NCBI GenBank assembly: GCA_030390025.1
Contig: CM059448.1
Location: 17,298,001 to 17,362,000 of the forward strand
From: Squalus acanthias
Lineage: Eukaryota
Length of the DNA stretch: 64,000 nt
Direction of reading: 5' to 3'
The notes beneath the pieces were generated by a model. That model was not told the DNA's origin. It searched no databases and saw only the letters and a program-made list of their open reading frames with translations. Shown piece by piece: positions 3,601 to 38,793 of this stretch; position 1 is the first letter of the stretch; each line of letters begins with the position of its first letter. The position numbers and the translations under genes are program-made.

Positions 3601-4275
3601 CATAACATAACATAAGAAATAGGAGCAGGAGTAGGCCATTCAGCCCTTCGAGCCTGCTCCACCATTCAATGAGATCATGGCTGATCTTCTGCCTCAACTC
3701 CATTCACCAGCCCCATCACCATATCCCTTGATGCCTTTACTAGTCAGAAATCTATCGACTTCTGTTTTGAATATACCCAGTGACTGAGCCTCCACAGCCC
3801 TCTGGGGTAGAGAATTCCAAAGATTCACCACCCTGTGTGTGAAGAAATGTCTTCTCATCTCAGTCCTGAATGGCCTACCCTTTATCCCGAGGCTGTGGCC
3901 CCTAGTTCTAGACTCCTCAGCCAAGGGAAACATTCTCCCAGCATCCACCCTATCAAGCCCTGTAATAATTTTGTATGCTTCAATGAGATCCCCTCTCATT
4001 CTTCTGAATTCAAGAGAATACAGGCCTAGTTTACACAATCTCTTCTCAAACGACAGTCCCGCCATCCCAGGAATCAATCTCGTGAACTTTCGTTGCACTC
4101 CCTCTATGGCAAGTATATCCTTCCTTAGGTAAGGAGACCAAAATTGTACACAGTACTCCAGGTGTGGTCTCGCCAAGGCCCTATATAATTGGAGCAAGAC
4201 TTCTTCACTCCTTTACTTAAATCCTCTTGTAATGAAGGCCAGCATACCATTTGCCCTCCTAATGGCTTGTGTATC
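3601..4275 (-). mobile_element. CR1-clade (HER1-like) LINE 3' fragment
   Basis: ORF 3694-4197 LYRALARPHLEYCVQFWSPY...LYSLEFRRMRGDLIEAYKI is a CR1 ORF2 C-terminus; 3' tail ends in TTATG repeats. Confidence 0.92.
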
Positions 4276-4293
4276 ACCATATATACTCTCCAC

Positions 4294-4403
4294 CAATGTT
4301 CCCTTGAAGCTGCGCAGACACGCAGCTCTCCAAACCGCGCGTGCATAGTATTTTGAATGGGCCGCACAGCCCCGCGCCCCCCAAAAAATTACCGGGAACA
4401 TTG
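4294..4403. mobile_element. hAT-type MITE, copy 1 (110 bp)
   Basis: TIR CAATGTTCCC...GGGAACATTG; 8-bp TSD CTCTCCAC/TTCTCCAC. Confidence 0.8.
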
Positions 4404-4644
4404 TTCTCCACCCCACCCAAAACCACGAGATTTCCTGGGAGAGGCGAAAAACCAGATTAAAAATCCCAGGCTGATGCAAACTAGAAGATCGATCGTGGAT
4501 CTCCTCATGTTTCACATCCAATGAAGCGTGGCCACTATTGTTATTGTAGGCAAACATTTGGACACAACAAGAGGTCACCGCATCAAATGAGACGAATGGC
4601 CAGTTAAATCCCTCAAATCCTGTGTTCAACAGAAAAACTTTGTA

Positions 4645-5175
4645 TCTCATGATTTTACATCTATCAATGTTAAACCTCATTTGCCATCTTTCTGCCCATC
4701 AAAGTAGCCTGTCCAGACCCTATCACTGGCTACTACACTGAATTTGATGTCCTCTGCAAACTTTGAGACTTTGAACAGACCATTCTCCACATCATTTACA
4801 AAGATTATAAACATCAGCCCCAACACCAACTCATTTGGCACTCCCAAATATCACCAGTCATTTAACCATGCATCAATCCAGCCTAATACTATGCTATATG
4901 TCCCATGGGCATGCACCTGATGAATCAGTCTGTATACGAGATGGTGTCAACTGTCTTCCTGAAATCCTCTGCCTCACTCTTGTCCTCCAGATCTGTAATC
5001 TCCCTAAAGAAATCGAGTAAATTGATCAGACATGACCTGCCCTTTCTGAACCTACCTAACTCCCTAATCAGACCATGTCCTTCCAGATGACCCATTATGC
5101 TATCCCTCAAAGTCTCAAACACTTTCCTCACAATCGAATGAAGGCTCACAGGTCTGCAATTATAAATTATCAATG
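4645..5175 (-). mobile_element. Degenerate CR1 LINE reverse-transcriptase fragments
   Basis: RPVSLHSIVRKVFE, FRKGRSCLINLLDFF and MRFNIDRCKIM remnants. Confidence 0.75.
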
Positions 5176-6697
5176 TTCCGAAACAGGTTACTGCACATTT
5201 TCTATAGGAGCCTGGAGCAACTAAGAAGAAAGGCTTGACTTTGGACAAGAGATCCAATACTGTTGCATCCAAAACATTTTTGCCTTTAAAACGGTTTCAA
5301 TGTCTTTATGGATTAGTTTAGGTTATTTTTCATTCCAACTCGCTAAAGACAGTGTCAGCTACCCAAAGGAACACACTTGTCAATGCAGACAATTAAAAAA
5401 AATATATTAGTTATACAATTGTAACAACATGCAGGGAGTCAACAAATAAAAGTATAGTAAACAGAATTTGTGACATTGCACTCTCAGCGTGCAGTATGAC
5501 TGGCCCTGGACAGAAACTTGAAGGTGTAGATCCTCTGAAACCTCTTTGTGGAGCCCAGTTTGAAAACCTATACACTATCAGAGGAGTTAAGATGTGTAAG
5601 ATGTTTGCAGCCAGATGTTTATCCCATCCATCTGTGCTGGATTCCAGCCCAATTCCCAGAGATGGAAGGACAATGCGGAGTCCACTGTACTACCAAGTTC
5701 CCTGAATCAGTTAATTTCATTTGTAAAAATATTACCCTCACACGCACCAAAAAAGTACACAGCATCAGTTCTGATGCCATACAGAAGATTCACAAATGTG
5801 AGAGAACAATAATTCATGCATATAGAAGGGAACAAGTGATTAATGAAGGCCTTTCTCAAGAAAAAAGATCTATGTAACACACTACTACTGGTGCAGTACT
5901 CGCTCTATTCTGCACAGCAACAATTCAGAAGAAATATTAATTAAAATCTCAATTTATGCAAATACTCACTTCTGATTATGTAAATATTGTATACTGCTTT
6001 GGAATGGGGCTGGGGAAAGATATATTTTTTAAACCACATATGCAGTCACTAGAATGATGGATGTGTGGTAGTAACCATCACATTTCAAGTGTGTGCGTAA
6101 TGTACAATTTAATTTTCACAAATCTGAAATATCACCTAAAGGAACAGAATACAGTATTCAAAAAGAAAACTTAAATAAGACACACCAAAATGTAATTTAA
6201 ATACAGCATACAACAAACTCAACATACATAGCCCACTACAAACTCATTTCTCATTTCAAACAAGATTTTAAAGTGGGTATTTCCCATCTTTCTTAGAAGC
6301 AGCTATTCATCGCCAGATTATTCTTAGATGCTGGCTAGAATTCACAGCAAATCACATAGGTTAATAGACTAAGAATTGAGCATATTAATTACCATCCTAC
6401 GTGCTGCTAAAGTAAAAATAAAAATCTACATTACCTCAATAGGGATATCATTAGGGGACAAAAGAATTAAACTCCCTCTAAAGCAGTGACTTGCAGATGT
6501 TAGGTAAGAAACAAACAAACAAATATTCAGATATCAGAAAGCGCACAATTTAGGGAGATGCGACATTAAAAAAGATGCACATACAATCTTTAAATTAAGT
6601 GCAGATTGTGCATCTGCTTAAGATGCAGATGTAGCTAGCAGCTGAATCATACACTGGAAAAATAATCTAGACTATAATCAATACTGTAACATTGAGG

Positions 6698-7269
6698 TAA
6701 AAACAGAAAATGCTGGAAATACTCAGCAGGTCAGGCAGCATCTGTGGAGAGAGAAACAGAGTTATCGTTTCAGGTTGATGACCTTTTATTGGAACTGGAA
6801 AAAGTTTTAGAGATGTAACAGATTTTAAGCAAGTGCAGGGGGCAGGGAAAGGGGGAAGAGGAGGAAAGAACAAAAGGGAAGGTCTGTGATAGGGTGGAAG
6901 GCAGGAGAGATTAAATGACAAAAAGGTATGATGGCACAAAGCAAAAGGAGATGGCAATGGGACAAGTTAAAGAAACAAAAGATGGGTCTAGAAAAGGTGT
7001 AAATGGGAATGGCAGAATCAACAGCTGCCATCTGAACAAATAGGGGCAGAGGTTATGGTCTGAAATTGTTGAACTCGATGTCGAGTCCGGAAGGCTGTAA
7101 AGTGCCTAATCGAAAGATGAGGTGCTGTTCCTCGAGCTTCGTTCGAACAGTGCAAGAGACCGAGGAAGAAGAGGCCAGAGTGGGAGTGGAGCGGAGAATT
7201 AAAGTGACAGGCGACTGGAAGCTCACGGTCACGCTTACAGACTGAACGGAGGTGTTCCGCAAAGCGGTC
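6698..7269 (-). mobile_element. 5'-truncated Penelope-like element (GIY-YIG endonuclease C-terminus plus pLTR, decayed hammerhead)
   Basis: Remnant reading frame ...KLEEQHLIFRLGTLQPSGLDIEFNNF*, typical of the end of a PLE GIY-YIG domain; 9-bp TSD ACATTGAGG at 6689-6697 and 7270-7278; mutated hammerhead at 6760-6796. Confidence 0.85.
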
Positions 7270-7496
7270 ACATTGAGGGGTTTTCCCCTAATTAATTAGT
7301 CACAGCTATTTTTCCATTACAATGCACTGGGAAATCTCAAAATACCAGTGTTATTCATCACTTTCCTTGTTTGGAAACTACAGTACCAGGTAAGATCAAA
7401 ATACTTCTCATTGTGAAGAAAATCTCCTGCACAACTTTCTCCCTCAAGGCGCTAACTCATACAGGAGTATGGCTTCACATGCACTCGAAGCTTTCA

Positions 7497-7623
7497 CAAA
7501 CTGGCTGCCGCGTTTCCTACATTACAATCGTGACTACACTTCAAAAGTACTTAATTGGCTGTAAAGCGCTTTGGAACGTCCTGATGTCGTGAAAGGCGCT
7601 ATAGAAATGCAAGTCTGTCTTTC
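7497..7623 (+). mobile_element. Deu-domain SINE 3' fragment
   Basis: GGCTGCCGCGTTTCCTACATTACAA...GGCGCTATAGAAATGCAAGTC. Confidence 0.75.
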
Positions 7624-10235
7624 TTGCCAGCACCTCCATCAAATAGATATTCGTGCATGAGTCCAAACACCGAGTATTGGCAGACTAATCAGCAATGGGG
7701 AAAGGGTAAATCACAGCCAAGCCAGATACTGTCCTCACCAGACAGCCACATCCACCCTTTACAGGAAAGGCAACTGGAAGACAGTCTGGAGTTTGCTATA
7801 CCAGGCACTGCTTTTATCACTGGGCCATCATGGGAACCCCAGGAAATATCCAATTTGCATATTTCAAGTAACCCTCTTCGTACTGCTCAAGCCAGCTGTG
7901 GCATCCAGGTTTAAACATCTTTCCGCAGCATCATCGAATACCGTAATTGTGTTTATAAAGTTGGCTGAAGGAGCATTACCCTATTACAGTTGACTCGGGA
8001 TAAATGCATACCTGATCTAAGCACAATTCTGATCCAATCATAGAATTCCAATGTACCAAATCAACATCCATTCACCCAATATACAGAACTCCTGATCTAA
8101 GCATACAACGCTCCCCAAACTATTTAGATTTTCATTGCTCAGCACACTGAATGTGGTCAGTCCAGCAGTTGTCAGCCCCCTTTTGTATAGCATTACGTAT
8201 CCTAAAGTATTTTAATTTTAATTCTGCTACAGCGCAGGCTGGGGTAAATATTGCACTTTTCTTAATCAATCACAGAAATCCTCATCCAAGCGCAATTAGG
8301 ACCAAAGCAGAACATTTCTTGAAGTCGTTACAGAATTCAAACAGGAACTGGTTAAGTTCCTAAGTCAGCAAAGAGTAGAGGGTTATGACTTTGAGGTAGG
8401 AAGCTTTTTTAAAAAAAAAAATAATTTAAAATGAACAGATGGAGTCACAACAAAAGGAGCTGGATAACTGACTGACTGCAGGATGGGGTGAATGGCCTTT
8501 TATTGTTCTTTATATTAATGTTCTAATGGTTTGATCAGAATTTAATTGGACTTTTTTGGGCCAGTATCAGGTTTATCTGAAACATGAAATCCTACTGGCA
8601 GTAAACAATAAAATTTGGAAATGGTAAGCTTAAAAAACCTTCACACCGAGTTGTGAATAGACAGCCATCATATGATATAAATCTGGACTTGAAGCACTCA
8701 AAGAAAATCATGATTCTAGAAGTAACAGGGAATAGATGATACAGTGTACTTAATTCAAAGCTGCTTAATTCAAAATATCTGCTAATTCAATTTTTGCACA
8801 TTACATTCATACTTTGTAATGTTAATTATATTGTTTAATCCAAATTACTGGATAATTCATTTTTTAGTGCAAAAAACAACTTTGAATTATCAGGACCAGA
8901 CTGCACAGGTTTGGAGCTAAAGCAAGAGGTTGACTAAAATGGAGTGGACCCTGTACATGGACCAAAATGACAGATCAACTTAGATGGGCTAATATGGTAT
9001 TTTCTCATTCTTAATGGAACAGAAAAGTGTAGGAATGGTGCTGTTTGTAAATTCTGTATCATTTTACCCTATGGCTCCCTCCACAGTACAATCATCAAAT
9101 AAAATCAGTCACACTCGAACACACACGGGGATATATGTTTTATGCTACTTCAAAAGCCAGCATATGTAGAAAAGGGTATTATACATCATAAAGAAACAGT
9201 TAACATATAGGAAATGGGCAATTATATGGAGATTATATGTGCCTAATAGAAAAGTAATATGCATGAACATGGTACAACAACAGTATCTTTGACATGGAAG
9301 TAGTGCGCTGTATTCACTGGTGGAGCATTTTATTCAAGTGTATTTTTATGGAATTGTGGAAAGGATTAGACTTTCCCCATAGGATACCAAATTCCAGTGC
9401 ATTGAGTGGGAGTAGCTAGCCTAAATACAAAATTTGTCAACATGTCAGCATCAACTCTTGGCAAGGATCTTGAAAAAAGGCAAACTGTAAAACAATGGGT
9501 GGCGTAAGGAAATAACATTTGTTGCTTCCTACAGGCTGATTTGAGAGTTGAAACAAAGAAAAATTAGCTTATCCAATTGCCACATCTAATTTGCTGAAAA
9601 ATGCAAGAACCAAAGCAGTCGAATTTAATATTAACCTTTGTTTTTTTTTTTAAAAACTACATTTTGGTCTACGAGCAATCAAACTAAACAAGCCTTTAGC
9701 ACAAAATCAATTTCACCAAAGGCACATTCTCAGAAAGTAGGTTTTTTTCCTCCCAATTGGTTGACTTTACTCTGCCCCTGGTGTAAATGAATGCGCCATT
9801 GGAGAGTGTAAACGACAACAGGTTCAACTCTGCCTTTACTTATTGCACTTGCGTTGGACAAATATTGAACTCTGTTCAAGGAAACAAAAAAGTTGTATTA
9901 TTGTGAACTAAAAACTGAACTTAGGGGTCAGCCTTGGCTCAGTGGTAGCACTCTTGCCTCGGACTCAAAAGGTTGTGGATTCAAGCACCACTCCAGAGTC
10001 CTGAGCACATAAATTTCGGCTGACATTCCAGTGCAGTACTGGAGGAATGCTGTACTGTCCGAGGTGCCGTCTTTGGGATGCAACGTTAAATCGAGGCCCT
10101 GTCTGGCCCCTTAGATGGACATAAATCATCCAATGGCACTATTCAAAGTAGAGCAGGGAAGTTCTATTGGTGATAACAACAGAAAACGCTGGAAAAACTC
10201 AGCAGGCCAGGCAGCATCCGAGGAGAGAGAAACAG

Positions 10236-10272
10236 AGTTAACGTTTCAGGTCGAAGACCTTTCGTCAGAACT
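10236..10272 (-). ncRNA. Minimal type I hammerhead ribozyme motif (inverted copy)
   Basis: Exact reverse complement of 10475-10511. Confidence 0.82.
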
Positions 10273-10474
10273 GGAAAAAAAAGCAGGAAATGGAATAGAT
10301 TTTAAAGCAGGTTTAGGGGCGGGGAATGGGATGAAAGAAGATATCTCTTAATGTCTCTCAATCTCTCCTGCTTTCTATCCTATCACTGACCTTCCCTTTT
10401 GTTCCTTCATCCCCTCCCCCATTTCCCCGCCCCTAAATCTGCTTTAAAATCTATTCCATTTCCTGCTTTTTTCC

Positions 10475-10511
10475 AGTTCTGACGAAAGGTCTTCGACCTG
10501 AAACGTTAACT
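10475..10511 (+). ncRNA. Minimal type I hammerhead ribozyme motif
   Basis: AGTT-CTGACGA-A-AGGTC ttc GACCT-GAAA-CG-TT-AACT: helix I AGTT/AACT, CUGANGA and GAAA boxes, 5-bp helix II, palindromic helix III AACGTT. Confidence 0.82.
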
Positions 10512-12032
10512 CTGTTTCTCTCTCCATGGATGCTGCCTGGCCTGCTGAATTTTTCCAGCGTTTTCTGTTGTTATTTCGGATTTCCAGCATCCGCAGTATT
10601 TTGCTATTCAAGTTCTATTGGTGTCCTGACCAACATTTATCCCTCAACCAACACCACTAAAACAGATTATCTGGTCATTTCTCTTATTGCTGTTTGTGGG
10701 AACTTGTGCATAAACTGGCTGCCACGTTTCCCTATATTAAAACAGTGACTACACTTCAAAAGTACTTAATTGGCTGTGAAGCGCTTTGGGATGTCCTGAG
10801 GTGATGAAAGGCGCAAAATGGATGATCTTTCTTTCTAAATAACTTTTCATTATGAGGAGCCAATTCCTTCCAGTGGTTAAACAAGTAAATCCAGTGTGAA
10901 AGCAATTCAGATTAGAAGTAATGAGGCAAAGACTTTCTTGTTGAAGGGACTTCAGGCCTTAGTGTGCTCTTCCATTGTAGGTCTGCACAGGGCTATGATC
11001 TGGTTCAAGAATTTGAGCTTTACAAAAGGTCACATCATATTATTTCTCCACAACAGATTGAGCCAGTCACAAACAAACGAATGAAGTGACCATTTAAATC
11101 AAGGACAAACTAAGACACAATTGAAAATGAACTTTCAGTCAGGAAGTAGCTACATTTAACAGCTACTAACAGAGTTTAAATTCAGCAAAGTTAGTAGTTA
11201 AATGATTAGCAAGCTCTTTTTCTACATATATTTTATTTACACACTTTGCTTGAGTTAATAAACAAAGTGAAAAAGAATAGAGAAAATTCAGATTAGCAAT
11301 GCTCAAAAGGCAAGAAGACACTGACCTTCAAGGAACACATTTCCAAACCAACCAGCAAAAAATCAGATGCTGTCTTGCTGAAGGCTTGTTTATAATGCAA
11401 GCTACATCTTGGGACACTGGCTTAAGAGCATTGTTACTGTGTACAGTGGCCAAGACTAATTGGCTATCGTACATGCAGAATGTACAATCACAGTGATGTC
11501 AACAGATGTCATGACACACAAAACGTCTAGATCACTATAGTGAGTTATATCATGATGGTAGTGTGCATAGGAGGATATCATGCTGTTGCGTGATGACATC
11601 AGCGAAAGTGTTCCAAAATCACACTGTTGCTAGAGAAGCACTTTGTGGGCAGAGTTAGACCAGGCATTAAGGCCCAGTGAAAAACAGGCCTTCCTGGCTG
11701 CAGGTCGAACAAAATCCAACAGTTTTACCTTCAACTGCCACTGGCTATGGGAGATAAATGGGAACCGGTGGCCAAAGCACCTAGAGAGAGCAACAATTAC
11801 AGTAAGAATTCTGCCTCACTCTGGTGACAACGTAGTTCAATGGTAGTGCTGGCATAGTTAGCGATTACAAAGAAACCAAGCATATTTCAAAGCAGGGAGT
11901 ATAGTAAATTGCAACTCCAGGAAATTACTACTCAACTGAGGGGAAACATGCATAAAGTGGTGTAGGGGCTCCATTAGTGGCAACAGATTTCACACATTAA
12001 CTTTCTGTGATAGTGTGATCTCTTATATGGTG

Positions 12033-12201
12033 TAAAAACAGAAAATGCTGGAGATACTCAGCAAATCAGGCAGCATCTGTGAAGAGAGAAACAGAGTTTA
12101 CGTTAACTCAGTTTCGCTCTTCACAGATGCTGCCTGACCTGTTGAGTATCTCCAGCATTTTCTGTTTTTATTTCAGATTTCCAGCATCTGCAGTATTTTC
12201 T
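12033..12201 (+). mobile_element. Short Penelope-like fold-back insertion, family A
   Basis: 138-bp spacerless imperfect palindrome 12033-12170 centred on ACGT (12100-12103); tail 12171-12201; TSD TCTTATATGGTG (12021-12032) / TCTTATATAGTG (12202-12213). Confidence 0.85.
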
Positions 12202-12887
12202 TCTTATATAGTGTATGCGGGCTTCAGAAAGACCCAAAATTCCTCAAAATCTGACCTCCATTCAAAAAGGTTAATTTTTGTACTCTTGATATTGATGAAA
12301 GAATGATCCAGAACCAGGACTACGGTTGGATCTACACCAGCAGATTCAGGCACAATAGTTGATCAAATTCAGCCCATTTCATATACCAAATCCATTTTCT
12401 GTTCTGCCCATAACCAGCTGCTGCCTTCACTTGAATTTAATTATATGCATGGATAAAATAAATATAAAATAAATTCTGCTGTTAAACTACCCAATGATAA
12501 TAACCAGAGCTGTGGTAGCTCATTGCAGATTTGACATCTTGAGCCAGGATATTTGGCGCTATCACAACACAACCTTGGTTTCAAACCACAGCATACACAC
12601 CACATCAAAGATAACAATAATTTGCATCACCCTAAAGTGCTTTGTGCTCCTCCTCCCAAGCTGGAAGGCTGTAACATTTCAAGGGAGAAGGGGAAGATGA
12701 TGTGCAAATTGTGTCGGACACCAACTGGATGAAACTGCAGACGAGGAGGCAAACATTTCAAGTTTATGAAATAATCTTGATCTTTGGGTTTACAGTCATA
12801 TAAAATATTGTAAATAATTAAAAATAGAGGTAAGTTAGGAATGCAAAAACATTCTTGGTGTAAAAGATGACAAAAACATTACATGCA

Positions 12888-25849: not shown

Positions 25850-26392
25850 GCTGACAATCCAGCGCAATATTGAGGGAGAGTGGCACTGCTGGAGGTGCCG
25901 TCTTTCAGATGGGACATTAAAAAACTGCGTTTCCGTCTGCCCTCTCAGGTGGACATAAAAAATGCCATGGCACCAATGTTCCCCTAATTATTTTTTGGGC
26001 CGCGCGGCCCCTTTAACGAGCTGTGCGGCCCATTCAAACTTCCGCGCATGCGCGGTTTTTTGCATCATGAAGCCGGCTCACCGGCTGCGCGGGACCTCGA
26101 GACAGCTGCGCGGCCACGCTGCTTAAAGGGAACTTTGCATGCCACTATTGGAAGAAAAGCCAGGAGGTTCTCTGTGTCCTGGCTAATTATTTATCCCTCG
26201 ACCAACACAACTAGAGCAGTTAAATTGGTCATTATTCTCACTGCTGTTTGTGGGACCTTGCTGCGCATAAATTTGCTGCCGTGTTTCCCCACATTACAAC
26301 AGTGACTACACCAAAAGTAATTAATTGGCTACAAAGCACTTTGGGCCTCCTGAGGACGCGAAGGAACTGTATAAATGCAAGTTCTTTCTTTT
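25850..26392 (+). mobile_element. Deu-domain SINE, 5'-truncated
   Basis: Matches the 9927-10835 copy from the core to the TATAAATGCAAG tail. Confidence 0.78.
25974..26137. mobile_element. hAT-type MITE, copy 3 (164 bp), inside a Deu-SINE
   Basis: TIR CAATGTTCCC...GGGAACTTTG; TSD CATGGCAC/CATGCCAC; host SINE is contiguous once it is removed. Confidence 0.8.
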
Positions 26393-29057: not shown

Positions 29058-29142
29058 CTTCATCCTGCTCGTCCTCCGGGTCTTTAAAGGTCGGTAACGG
29101 GTTTAACAAGTCCTCCAACTGCTGCGAGATGGGCGCCGCCAT
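29058..29142 (-). CDS. AATF: Apoptosis antagonizing transcription factor (Che-1/Bfr2 family), coding exon 1
   Basis: AAGATGGCGGCG start; MAAPISQQLEDLLNPLPTFKDPEDEQDE resembles the AATF N-terminus (LxxLLNP...DPE); donor GTAACG; 85 nt, phase 1. Confidence 0.92.
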
Positions 29143-32517: not shown

Positions 32518-32912
32518 TTACCAAACGGCAGCCTCGTTCATTTCCGGAGGCGGATGTGACAAATGGCTGGTGTATCCCCCGTTGGTGAGGGAGAAGGACG
32601 GGCTGGGACCCGGCCCGAACACATCCGCCGCCATCGAGTGCATTGACGGTCCTGTTAGACCCGGCTCTGGGCTCGGAGAGTCCCCGTGAGAGTGAGAGAT
32701 CATGTCGGTGAACCTCTGGCTGTCGCCTGGTCCCGGCAGGTTGCTGGGGTGATGGCCGGGCAGTGGGTGCTCGAGTCCGCCGAGTGGGGTCGCCCCAGGC
32801 CCGGAGGAGGGCACAAAACCCAGATCCACTGGAGTCTGCGCCTGAGACGAGGGGGGACCTTGAGGAAAGAAATCATAATTGCTTCCAGGACCATAATATT
32901 CAGTCTGATAAT
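32518..32912 (-). CDS. LHX1: LIM homeobox 1, coding exon 5 (C-terminal region to stop)
   Basis: Acceptor TTCCCAG; [31 protein letters not shown]...[11 protein letters not shown]...[32 protein letters not shown] and EMNEAAVW are LHX1-type, and adjacency to AATF supports LHX1 over LHX5. Exons sum to 1233 nt (410 aa). Confidence 0.95.
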
Positions 32913-35900
32913 CTGGGAAGGAAAAAAAAGGGAGAAAATAAATATAAATGCACGTTATCCTTATGCATACACATTGCAGTTTCAAGAAGTCAAATACAAA
33001 TAAGAGTAGGGACGAATGAACTTTGCAATCAGATAAACTAGGTTTTGTTGGAGGGTTTCAGCAATGCGTTGTTCAAAACCAAAACGCGAGCCAAGTGAAA
33101 TCAAAATAGGAACACAACGAATTAAAACTCACAGTAACAAAGTTTGCAGTTAATTCCTAACCTGGCCTTGCACTCTGAAAACTTTAGAATTGAAATCGGT
33201 GACTTTAGTTTATCTCCTTTGCACGTTGGAGAACTGATAAAGGGTAGGCACCTCCTAAACATGAATTGACCTTTAAAGGCACCAAACTCAAACCTGGTTA
33301 CTCCCCTCCCAAGACACACACACAGTTACAATGTGGTCCATAGATTCAACCTTCAACATAAAGCCAGGCGCATTCGTTCCCAAATTATTGCATTTATTGT
33401 TATTCTTTATAAGTTACTCGAGTTGATCTGCTGTCACTATGAAATCTGCGATCAGAAACTAAGCCTTCACACATCTCTGGGAACCACAGAGGCCGACATA
33501 CTGCTCTCTAGCAATGTGAAATAAAACGGGGTTGTTGTACATAGGGTGGGGAGATAAAGTGGTAATGATCCTTTCTGGTCCAATGAGACCCAATCATAGG
33601 GCATGTCTCTGGTGCGAGGTTTAAGACAAAATAAAACATTTACACAATTCTAGGCGTTTTAATTTTTTAGTAGCCAAAACAAACATTTATGAAATTCTTT
33701 CAGAGACAATAAAATCAGAACATTTTTTTGTGACACAGTGAATTATTTTCTCTTTTAGCTAATGAGCCTTACATTCGAGCATCCCCAAACTCCGTTGATC
33801 AGAATTACTCTGTGAATTCACAGTGTGACGCGCAACGGGCAAGGCAAACAGCAATCAAATGTTTTTTTGTTCTAATTTATGCCCCATTTGTAAATCAGAC
33901 TGATGTCTTGGGGTTTTTTTTTTTGCTCAAGATTTCATCTCTGTAAGTGAAAAATGAAGCAGATGTGATTGCAAACAAACGCTTGGGAAACTATTCTGTG
34001 TTATTAATCCCTATCACACACAAGGTCTGGCGCAGCAGGGTCCCACTTTTTGAATAATGCTCACTCATTTTACACAAACGCAACCGCTCTCACAAAACCA
34101 CCACTCAACTAGTCATTGTCGAGCACTCGGCAAATAACAGCCTGCCATCCCACAACCTTAGTCTGAAAGATCTTGTAAAATAGTTTATTATTCGGAGCTG
34201 AGGTTTAAGTCGTGCACTCGCACTTAGTTACCTAGTTACCAGATTCAGTGAAGTGTTCTGAAAACAGTCTGCTACCTAAATGCTCCACAGGTATTAATGC
34301 AAATTACTCCCAATATGCATTATTTAAAAATCCGAGTATTAAAACCAATGGTTCATGCACCAACATAATTTACACCCCCAAATCTTAATAGGGTCTATAT
34401 ATTTTTTTAAATTAACACGGGGTTCAGTGTTAAATGTGCAGTCAGTTCTTTTGAAGGCTTTTCTGAAATTCATCTGGATCTGTTTTTCCCTGGTAAAATG
34501 TATTTGAATTTAAACGCCGTTACAGTACTCTGTATCCGACGCGTTATTTTTCAATTCAGCCTGAATGCATGCTAATTTACATAAGTAAATGAAATGGAGA
34601 ACGTGCATACTAAAACTGGCCGCTACGAGTAAGCTAAGCACGGATGAAAATGATGCCGGCACTTTCCAATCATCCAATAGTTGTATAGAAAACTTCAATA
34701 AATGCGATCATATCCGACCTCATTTTAATTTCAAATCAGTCCTGTTTCAATGTAAGATCGAATATGGGGAAATCCCTGCCAGCTCACCCGCTTATCGCCG
34801 CGTGTAAAATATCTTTTAAAATGTTTTCTTTTAAAAGGTACTTGGGAGACGTTGGATCAGCAATTAGCTGCCCAGCACAATCCAATGTAAATGAAGTTAA
34901 AAAAATAAACTTACTCCGCTTATGGTTCATAATTAATCAATAATACAGCAAAGCGCGGTCATTCTCTTTTTCATATGAAACATACATCACACCTTTCTTT
35001 CGAAATGCATGGGAACGATGCTAAACTACGATTTAAAGCCAAAAGTTTTTATTTGGGTGGGGGAGGGGGGAGGGGAGGGGGTTCCAGCATTCAAGGGTTG
35101 ATGAAGTTTAAGCTTCGTGCTATGGTTTTGTTAAGAGCCTCCCACTTATGCTGTACATTCACGCCATATTAATTAACCCCATCCCCTCCTGTGTGCTTAT
35201 TGTCTTCCCCGTGTCCTCGCCATCAAATAACAGCGAGTCTGCTGTTTACAATCCACTGGAAGCTCCGCCAGCCTGTCACTAAACATACACATGGAAACTT
35301 TGTTACAAAAAAAAGTTCACAAATGTTAACCCAGTTGATTGTACAGTGGAATTGTACCGGATAGCCCTTTCCGATATCTCGGTATGTATTATAGAAAAAT
35401 AATAAAAATCTATAACGCGCTACACTCATTCTAACACACTTTTCTTTTAAAATTAAGTCAATGGTATAAATTACAAGATAACATTGATCCAGATATAAAC
35501 AATCCCAGGCCCTATTCTAACTGCGTGCTGGTCTGAATAGATATGTGCTATTGTAACTAAAGCGTTTTCTGTTACATCAAGTAAGCATTTGATTATTCAT
35601 AATTATAAGTAAATAAAACGGAAGCACATGTTTCACATCACAGTGTCCACGTTACACAAAGATAGTGAAATGTTTATAATACGAAGTCAAAACGGGTAAA
35701 CGTTGAATACATAATGTACAGCAATATAATCAAGTAAAGCCTACCCTTATACTTTTTTTTTGGAAAAAAAAAGTTTTAAAAAAATTACCTTAACTTTATG
35801 GCACTCCCTATTTAGGCTTGAAACCTGGTTTACTTGCATTCTGTTAAACTGCAAATCGGAAAATAAAACCCACAATTGTAAGCAACGTTAACGTTAGTTA

Positions 35901-36449
35901 GTTTTAATAGGAAGACTGAAAACATTTAAGCTACATTTAAGTATCTTTTTAAGAACCCAGTGTAGATGTCAGTAGTAAACATAACCCTGTGGCAATGCAC
36001 CATTATGCTATTCCCTGGCTCTTTTTATACTGGCGAATATACACATATGTTGTATTATTTCAGTTCCTTTTGTATATTCCTATGGTTATTTTAGGCGGGC
36101 CATTTATTTTAGACGCTACTTATTGGGGTTCCCTGTTTCTCAGTCGGTTCTTGTAAGCGGGAAACACTGCTTAGTTGATTCTGCATATGAAACTGATCTG
36201 ACATTGACAAGTAGATCGTTGAGGGAAAAGAGATACTTTAGCCTTAAAATAGCACGGAGACTCTCTTCGTGTAATCAGTGATTGAATAAGTCAATAATAA
36301 GTCAATAAATGGCTAACTTCATACAGTATTTCAATTGTCCGTCAATACATGACTGTAAAACTGAATTTGCAGCGTCCTTCTCATTAAATAAGTAATCAGT
36401 TTTTAAGCACATCCTGGGGAGTGTTTAACAGAAATGAATTGGGACTTAC

Positions 36450-36615
36450 CCCCGTAGTAATTGAAAGGGCCGTTTCCCATCATGTCAGCCCCGTCGAGGC
36501 GATCTCCCAGGGGTCTCATCCGTCTGGGGCTGCGGAAAAACGCGTGTCTACGAGCCCCTAAAGCACTCAGCTGCTTCATCCGCCTCTCCTTAGACCTCCT
36601 GTTCTGGAACCAGAC
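36450..36615 (-). CDS. LHX1: LIM homeobox 1, coding exon 4 (homeodomain helix 3)
   Basis: Acceptor CCCCAG; [42 protein letters not shown]...YYG; donor GTAAGT; 166 nt. Confidence 0.96.
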
Positions 36616-38515
36616 CTGGGGCACAAAGCAGCCGCAAGATTCATTTTATTTCGACAATCCTGAGTTAATATTAAACCATACATACAACGCAAACAATACC
36701 CTTCCCAGCCCCATAATTCAGAATTGAGGTAAACCTGCAGCACCTCTTTAAAAAAAGCTTGGCTTTAATTCTACACTGCAACATTAATCTCAAACCAGTC
36801 TTGAAACACAGAATGCTAATATTGACACCTTCCTGTTTCATAAGCTGAAAGAAAACCGGAAGGCTTCCCCAGAATTAAATGCTAAACCCAATTTACAACA
36901 GTCATGCCAAGCATTTCAACGATATCCCCTTGATTCCAGACTCTTAGGATAACACACAGCCAATGGACCTGCTATATTTTAAAATGCAATTGCAAGTTGA
37001 ATGAAAACTCGACTTCCTTCTTTTAATATATATTCAAATGCAGAATGGTTCCGTTATTTGTTTTATGGTGGAAATATGCTTGAAATGTCACATCTTGGAA
37101 AAAGTGGCTCTTAAATGAAAAGCAAGAAAGCGTTCTTCGCCAGTTTACCTTTTAAAACTCACTTTTTCCTTTTGAAAAAGGTAACGGACTCATTGAACAA
37201 CATCGTTCAATTCTTAAGTTTCTTATTGAAATAAAGTCAGACATTTAATAATCGCAAAATTGCACTGAATGAAGTAAAATTAATGCTTAAAATCAGGTTG
37301 CACAGAAGTGCCGACAAATTGAAAAATATTTGCATGAATACAATTTGCTTTGTAAGACAGGTGAAGGGTTCTGAAGCTAATTCCAATTGCCCTGCAAGAT
37401 TATAAGTAATTATTATCCTCTGGGGCTGGTGTGTTCTATATTTAACCTGGGCCGACTAAAGTGACGGCCTTACCCTTTCAGTAACCCACCTCAGGATTCT
37501 CGGCCCCTTTATTCCACAATTAGAATAAATGTAGAAAATGTTGCCTTTTTACATGCCCTATGTGGTGTTATTGTCCCCATTACAACAGAATCGTGTTTCT
37601 ACCTTCGTTGCCTCAGAGCTGGGGTCCTCTGCACCCACCCAGGGCTGGAGGTATCGCGTATGTAATGTTTAGCAATAATCTCTTACTCACACAACTGCCA
37701 GTTTAATTCGGCGGCTCTCTCCTCCCGCTCTTGCGGTCGTTTTTTTTTATCAGCTGCCCTAACATTTAACCCGGGTATTCCTGTTCATTTTCTCTGAGCT
37801 GTTTACACCTCGGGTTGCTTCCCTAAGCAGGGTGCTCTCGGATAGTTTAACCCGTCTCTGTACCGGATTTGCTGGTGCAGCTATTGTCTTGTACACTTGT
37901 TTCTGGGTTGACGATGGCTTGTGCCGCTCTGACCATATCACCATTACATTTGGCCTGCGTTATTGTCTCTATTTATATTTGCTTGGACGCGGCTTGACCT
38001 CTTGGGTGCAGTCTTCTGGGTTTTCCTACCTTCATTACTCTCACATTTGACCTGATTAAAACGGATTGTTTACCCACCTCCTCTTGCTTGGCTTTGCGTT
38101 CTATACTTTTGACGCTTTCTCCCGGCTTAAACTTTTCCCCGCTGAGGTGTAGCCATCCCGATAATCCAGCTTTTTGTGTAATAAAGCGCTCTGAGGATTT
38201 ATCCCGGGTCAATGCTATCCATTACCTGTGCCCGTTGGTTCGCCATTTCTAGTACGACCCCCCTCCCCCACTGCCACCTTTAGTCTGCCCTCCCCGAGTT
38301 AACTGTTTTTTTTATACTCTATCCCAATTTCTAAATCTCTCATTTGTACAACCCTCTTTTGCTTGGTTTCCTGAAGCATTTATCTCCATTTTATCCCCCC
38401 ACTCAGAGCACTTCTCTGCAAGTTTAATATTGAGCCTAAATCACTGCCTCCCCCTGCCTCCATGTCGCCCATGTTTTGTTACATTGGAGCCCTCAGTTCT
38501 AAATGTCTCTCTTAC

Positions 38516-38793
38516 CTGTATAACCCTCATGTTTAGCCCGGTTTCCTGAGCTAGCTGCTCTCGGATGTGCCTGGTGGGTTTGGGAGTGGCTGCAAATGCC
38601 GCTTTGAGAGTTTCCAGCTGTTTTGCTTTGATGGTTGTGCGGGGACCCCGGCGCTTGGCTCCCAGATTCTGTTCCTCGTTCTCGTTATTGGCAGTCTCTT
38701 TATCTGAAATATTGGCGCTTTCTGAGTCTTTTGTGTCATCTTGTAAATGATCTTGAGAATCCGGTGACAAACTTTGATCACTACATGCCGTTA
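38516..38793 (-). CDS. LHX1: LIM homeobox 1, coding exon 3 (linker and most of the homeodomain)
   Basis: Acceptor TGTACAG; [15 protein letters not shown]...[47 protein letters not shown]; donor GTAAGA; 278 nt. Confidence 0.96.

Follow-up and report, generated by a model that had tools for sequence, protein, structure and literature searches.

Penelope-like elements (PLEs) with inverted pseudo-long terminal repeats (pLTRs) have been described before: one published example combines an inverted pLTR with a 31-bp tail and a 9-bp target-site duplication (TSD) (PMC3846280), and the architecture of inverted truncated copy, tail and TSD is set out in a curation guide (PMC8969392). The protein of a lizard PLE of the Poseidon clade cuts and extends both target strands and starts reverse transcription at two positions, one on either side of the genomic tail; hammerhead mutants of this element insert normally (PMC11167929). 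As for the ribozyme, dual minimal hammerheads on opposite strands, 100–700 bp apart, have been noted (PMC4209133). The locus compared with these systems lies in a 64,000-nt stretch of the shark Squalus acanthias (GCA_030390025.1, contig CM059448.1, positions 17,298,001–17,362,000, forward strand), hereafter the window, where it occupies positions 10159–10623 in intron 4 of the gene AATF. Very probably, a head-to-head pair of truncated 3′ ends from a high-copy Penelope-like element entered an older short interspersed element (SINE) here in one insertion, which was likely primed from both strands of a staggered cut; the hammerhead that came with it is predicted to be an inert passenger. The insertion is likely ordinary and inert, and its kind is known from earlier work; the first-pass annotation of this DNA had missed that its architecture is a textbook insertion product of its class, recurring in the same intron, and therefore overrated its importance.

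The 437-nt insert, insertion A, is bounded by an exact 14-nt direct repeat at 10159–10172 (left) and 10610–10623 (right), for which the chance probability is about 2e-6 with 300 placements allowed. The older SINE is split by it into a 5′ part (9939–10158, +) and a 3′ part (10624–10814, +). When the insert and one repeat are removed, the site aligns gap-free across the 14-mer to the SINE copy at 50111–49930 (151/184 identical), and the copies at 26139–26311 and 27043–26798 align similarly to the insert-free site. Because these paralogues show the empty site with a single 14-mer, the repeat is a true target duplication. Within the insert, an inverted, 5′-truncated and tail-less copy of the element 3′ end (10173–10340, −), which is sense in the AATF pre-mRNA, stops at an inner end site and meets a direct, likewise 5′-truncated copy of the same pLTR region (10341–10574, +; 81% identity over 224 nt to the sister copy B described below). 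The head-to-head junction between them carries an 8-nt palindrome, AGATATCT (10339–10346), and a 35-nt tail (10575–10609, +) lies between the inner and outer 3′ ends, with no partner found for it in the left arm. The two arms (10173–10326 against 10423–10574) match over about 153 bp with 4 substitutions and one 2-nt indel within a T run, and pairing goes on for about 15–20 nt past a 7-nt deletion, reaching about 10340. The first-pass annotation had read the TSD and the unpaired tail correctly, and its arms of about 155 bp are present, if slightly longer than stated. The host SINE presumably resembles the SacSINE1/Deu-like family. Members of that family have been described in sharks (PMC5499810).

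Besides insertion A, the window has two further copies of the family, both in AATF intron 4. Copy B (6698–7271, −) is a single 574-nt copy that ends at the inner, tail-less site and is flanked by a 9-bp TSD, which is exact with 2 bp shared with the element; a 14-bp TSD was considered for it and dropped, as the family runs to 7271. It holds the frameshifted C-terminus of a GIY-YIG endonuclease (the last ~70 residues) and, ~260 nt past the endonuclease end, a decayed hammerhead that is intact in A. Copy C (12033–12201) is a second fold-back with the same outer ends as A, a different centre, and a 12-bp TSD with 1 mismatch. Insertion A itself has no open reading frame (ORF), and it is the endonuclease end in copy B that supports the Penelope-like origin proposed at first pass. 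This end matches the proteins P0177 (E 6.9e-8), P0053 (E 3.5e-16) and P0125, of which P0177 and P0125 carry both a reverse transcriptase (RT) and a GIY-YIG domain. In P0177 (813 aa), the Pfam domains RVT_1 (E 1.7e-8) and GIY-YIG (E 1.4e-5) are both above the cut-off; a Pfam scan of the two short pieces of copy B alone gave no match. The linker CX2-5CxxC occurs in the close homologues P0037, P0053 and P0067, and among 151 hits examined, 45 had the length needed for this comparison and 22 of these showed its pattern; the linker region falls outside the part retained in copy B. Such a linker is assigned to Neptune and Nematis and not to Penelope/Poseidon (PMC8557442), and its presence in the homologues points to the Neptune (or Nematis) clade for the shark family. 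P0037 is a Heptranchias perlo NCBI protein named receptor-transporting protein 3-like that ends in a PLE endonuclease, and the fusions P0037, P0038 and P0053 are probably gene-model artefacts.

Sequencing contigs show that the Penelope-like family is very high-copy. Four of the 24 listed runs were compared over 6400–12400, all runs being available as contigs and either of DNA or of unstated kind, and the summed depth on the element was 7e4 to 2.5e5 times that on the unique intron, a ratio that is not a copy number. In all four runs, contigs leave the family into mixed flanks at 6698 (458–756 contigs) and at 12199 (465–738). Flank agreement at these two end piles is 0.39–0.48, which indicates that most contigs do not continue into one shared sequence. 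Among the 15 best supported of 4196 joints, three resemble other fold-backs with a sense arm that starts in the CUGA box and have high summed depth (10267→10481 in four of four runs, 10254→10484 in two and 6768→10481 in one), and 5′ ends may cluster at the upstream edge of the ribozyme. A further joint, 12199→6698, is carried by 2–8 contigs in each of the four runs and connects the tail end to an inner-end antisense copy, tail to tail, which is the opposite of the usual arrangement. Pattern scans of metagenome and of viral contigs gave 0 loci each.

The two arms of A contain identical (37/37 nt) minimal type I hammerhead motifs, at 10475–10511 (+) and at 10236–10272 (−), the latter being the sense copy in the AATF pre-mRNA and predicted to be fully paired to its antisense. 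Each has a helix I of 4 bp, a helix II of 5 bp, a palindromic ACGU helix III and a GUU triplet, after which the cut is predicted, between 10507 and 10508. Across the window, 2 sites match the pattern CTGANGA-N(1-30)-GAAACGTT, where 0.02 would be expected by chance; none of 100 shuffles reached 2. All core positions (C3 U4 G5 A6 N7 G8 A9, G12 A13 A14, A15.1-U16.1, H17) are present in both arms, with an extra A at 10486 between positions 9 and 10.1 and with C10504-G10505 as the palindromic 15.2-16.2. The 10.1-11.1 pair is A10487-U10499 and not the conserved G-C; G10.1-C11.1 is called highly conserved in PMC4209133. The motif on both strands, its palindromic helix III and the cut site were thus given correctly by the first-pass annotation, but the A-U pair departs from the minimal type I motif that it had claimed, and the covariance-model check that it named came out negative: the Rfam hammerhead models had no match at E<=1 in the window, the motif being one without a helix III stem-loop. 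Sub-threshold Rfam matches to miRNA-like hairpins and tRNA were rejected as generic. A pyrimidine tract followed by CAG ends inside the 5′ strand of helix I (10300–10270, −, and 10447–10476, +) and resembles a splice acceptor; no strong splice donor motif was found downstream of it on the minus strand. An intron of Drosophila virilis Penelope ends at the same place (PMC4209133). Copy B, a lone sense copy in the AATF pre-mRNA, has 4 changes relative to A at the 13 core positions of its hammerhead (6796–6760, −), a decay with P 0.002–0.14 depending on the assumed background rate, which is post hoc and in part CpG decay.

By analogy with the lizard element in vitro, the following course of insertion can be proposed. 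The GIY-YIG endonuclease of the element would cut the two strands 14 nt apart; one 3′ end would prime at the outer start site to give the tailed copy of 269 nt, and the other would do so 35 nt farther upstream, at the inner site, to give the tail-less copy of ~168 nt. Both complementary DNAs (cDNAs) would then stop early and join at their ends, and fill-in would make the TSD. In the resulting transcript, the ribozyme would pair with its mirror while emerging and never fold, and the 169-bp hairpin would be a probable ADAR substrate during the lifetime of the intron, without function for AATF. In the window, the end points of all three inverted or tail-less copies agree to within 1 nt, whereas the two tailed copies run to the end of the tail, which is 35 nt in A and ~30 nt in C and is found at one end only. 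Copy B is one-armed with a TSD of its own, so that an inner-start product can be a complete insertion, and because A and C have the same outer ends but different centres, the mirror half is made during insertion. The centre of copy C is a loop-less 6-nt palindrome, which fits the annealing of two cDNA ends. This centre (12095–12110) is the hammerhead helix III palindrome, just upstream of the cut site, and since copy C keeps the bases upstream of that site, its template was not ribozyme-cleaved RNA.

Two further observations concern the borders of the copies. The flanks at the inner junctions end in ATTGGTG (10166–10172), TATGGTG (12026–12032) and ATTGAGG (6691–6697), a possible target preference that is not visible in the A-rich loose-end consensus of the read contigs. 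An ATG at 10530, 22 nt past the predicted cut, opens a frame through the tail in A (10530–10609) and in C (12127–12201, +), which may be the start of the ORF of the element; the peptide that this frame encodes in A had no match among the proteins compared.

The mirror arm could also have another origin in the same Penelope-like element, namely self-primed fold-back of the cDNA or template, with the endonuclease resolving the hairpin 35 nt short of its end. Junction palindromes have been read as self-priming (PMC3846280) and the tail as the trace of an intermediate resolved by the endonuclease (PMC8557442), and insertion A offers an 8-nt palindrome at its junction and subfamily letters that both of its arms share against B and C. 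This account has difficulty, however, with copy B, which ends at the inner site with its own TSD and no partner arm, and with the loop-less centre of copy C; the junction of A has no clear complementarity to the start point of the mirror arm, and the two ends match RT start sites mapped in vitro. We regard self-priming as rather unlikely, and priming from both strands of the cut as the better description. Much less credible still is that the palindrome is a non-autonomous unit that moves whole, either resembling a miniature inverted-repeat transposable element (MITE) with long terminal inverted repeats or as a palindromic RNA mobilised in trans. The long inverted repeats and the clean TSD would agree with this, and the recurrence of fold-back joints such as 10267→10481 in all four runs means that some centres recur. 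But no joint at the centre of A is among the 15 best of the 4196, the ends are asymmetric with the tail on one side, the TSD varies (14, 12 and 9 bp), the centres of A and C differ, and copy B has one arm only and extends into the coding sequence of the endonuclease. Symmetric terminal inverted repeats, a fixed TSD and a uniform centre, by which MITEs are recognised, are not found in A, B and C.

A different alternative concerns function, and would have the hammerhead active in the AATF pre-mRNA or the hairpin adopted by the host for intron cleavage, editing-dependent splicing or as a small-RNA source. The catalytic-core letters are all intact in both arms, the hairpin has 169 pairs, which involve 89 adenosines, and includes a helix of 58 bp without a break, helix I follows the pyrimidine tract with CAG on the minus strand, and hyper-editing is abundant in the brain of one chondrichthyan and Penelope repeats are heavily edited in a lizard (PMC5625713). 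Intact cores are, however, expected at an arm divergence of 2.6%, and with a family whose depth exceeds that of the unique intron by four to five orders of magnitude, one copy in a long intron is unremarkable. The predicted folding energy of the minus strand is −307 kcal/mol (z −28), forcing hammerhead helices I and II in this RNA costs 63.9 kcal/mol, with pair probabilities that round to 0, and snapshots of nascent-transcript folding are already zipped. The head-to-head geometry implies that, on either strand, the antisense arm is transcribed before the sense hammerhead. Even the bare 37-mer prefers a misfold (−9.1 against −5.9 kcal/mol for the active form), and as a dimer its active form (−9.7 kcal/mol) loses by 13 kcal/mol to an inactive one (−22.9 kcal/mol). 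Published minimal hammerheads did not cleave as monomers and cleaved poorly as dimers (PMC4209133), a dimer requirement is stated in a review (PMC6765202), and the lizard PLE hammerhead needs its protein (PMC11167929). No second intact core was found on the pre-mRNA strand from exon 1 to the window start, the part of the pre-mRNA that lies in the window. The hammerhead is accordingly predicted by folding to be locked by its mirror copy and inert, much as the first-pass annotation had supposed when it placed the ribozyme in a long hairpin. Given the predicted locking, the preference for misfolds, the lack of a partner core in the window and the inactivity of published single motifs, cleavage of the AATF pre-mRNA is unlikely, and we would be surprised by activity or adoption of either kind.

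Several points weigh against an inert two-strand insertion of this kind. The cutting, priming and joining steps lean on a single in vitro study, of an element from another clade (Poseidon), and head-to-head products are absent from the accessible text of that study (PMC11167929). The sequence of A, taken by itself, is compatible with self-priming and with endonuclease resolution. The endonuclease evidence derives from copy B and not from A, and the clade assignment rests on homologues, with the linker pattern in the fraction of hits given above. The piles of loose ends coincide with the ends of copies B and C, and so arise partly by construction, and the consensus at 6698 starts with 9 letters of tail sequence. 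As for the ribozyme, the rest of intron 4 and the later introns, beyond the window, may hold partner hammerheads, and equilibrium folding ignores proteins and kinetics.

By analogy with hyper-edited substrates of this type in other animals, the hairpin is a plausible ADAR substrate. Processing by Dicer would be less likely for a nuclear intronic hairpin. The A-to-G differences between A and copies B and C were considered as ADAR footprints and rejected, since most of them restore CpGs, that is, A is less decayed. A more speculative idea, which we think improbable, is that head-to-head insertion acts as an off switch: with the antisense transcribed first, fold-backs would shut down the ribozyme they carry and be tolerated in introns, lone sense cores would be lost faster, and tens of thousands of such hairpins would form a main shark ADAR substrate. 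If true, shark fold-back hairpins would be the counterpart of inverted Alus. Intron 4 has the corresponding pattern, with an intact core in the locked copy and a decayed core in the lone sense copy B.

As for age, the arms of A diverge by 2.6% (95% range 0.7–6.7) and those of copy C by 8.5%, and the observed/expected CpG ratio is 0.84–0.86 in A; copies B and C have 0.13 and 0.30, respectively, and the window as a whole has 0.51. The unique intron, with distances taken as sums over the contig pieces shown, is ~0.7% away from another sample of this organism, 3.6% from two related organisms and 5.1% from a third. At 2.6% divergence, a 14-bp TSD would still be perfect in 69% of cases, and gene conversion between the arms would make A older than the divergence suggests. 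By these comparisons, A is the youngest of the three copies but need not be recent, and its age is moderate. The term fairly young, used at first pass, is apt relative to B and C by their CpG ratios, but the divergence range of A overlaps the ~3.6% distance to the relatives. Among the contigs listed, the unique ones cover the locus up to ~9950 and again from 10785, breaking off within the host SINE. Contigs from related organisms run 22–30 letters into copies B and C, which is below the 31-letter rule, and the presence of B and C in the relatives is suggestive only.

The position of the three copies follows from the exons of AATF, which were mapped with shark AATF proteins, the best match being from Heptranchias perlo. 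Exons 1–4 lie on the minus strand at 29142–29047, 23528–23346, 21869–21609 and 15965–15825, and this mapping found no AATF exon past exon 4 within the 64-kb window. With no later exon beyond 15825, insertion A and copies B and C are placed in intron 4, in agreement with the minus-strand transcription and intron number given at first pass. Upstream of AATF and on the same strand, ORFs at 32518–39835 (−) contain LIM and homeodomain-like sequence and are presumably LHX1-like. Fragments at 3694–5296 (−), in the same intron, resemble the reverse transcriptase of a CR1-type long interspersed element.

The single insertion matters little. As a class, however, the shark insertions are a natural record of PLE integration, in which the two fixed 3′ ends, the TSD length and the junction can be read copy by copy. 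They can test the two-start-site model of the lizard element outside the Poseidon clade, and much of the double-stranded RNA in shark introns may come from them. Our literature search, whose coverage excluded most subscription papers and Repbase, found no paper devoted to shark PLE fold-backs, and sharks are not named in the results and discussion of PMC4209133.

In comparison with known systems, A is closest to the inverted-pLTR PLEs of the Pen2a_Av type (PMC3846280; PMC8557442), with which it shares a direct copy next to an inverted, 5′-truncated one, a tail at one end (30–40 nt in those elements), a TSD that encloses the entire unit, a palindromic junction and a target site within a different retroelement. 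The TSD is 8–10 bp in those elements compared with 14 bp in A, and A differs further in having no ORF between the repeats, in that both of its copies are stumps (269 and ~168 nt), and in its shark host. As for metazoan PLE hammerheads (PMC4209133), the motif in A is of type I with a 4-bp helix I, an extra base between positions 9 and 10.1, a palindromic 15.2-16.2 and no loop 3, but it has A10.1-U11.1 in place of the conserved G-C, and a helix II of 5 bp. The lizard Poseidon element PAc of Anolis carolinensis (PMC11167929) has two 3′ ends one tail length apart, downstream of the hammerhead, as does A. Cutting and extension of both strands, which we propose for the shark family, and a template left uncut at the ribozyme site, as suggested by the upstream bases kept in copy C, would be further similarities to PAc. 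Unlike Penelope and Poseidon, the shark family has endonuclease homologues with the CX2-5CxxC linker. Non-LTR retrozymes (10.64898/2026.07.22.740005) are, in analogy to A, short, non-coding and PLE-derived with a type I hammerhead, and they have been reported from one chondrichthyan. Retrozymes, however, are repeated head to tail and carry two or more sense ribozymes, whereas insertion A is arranged head to head with one sense motif per strand.

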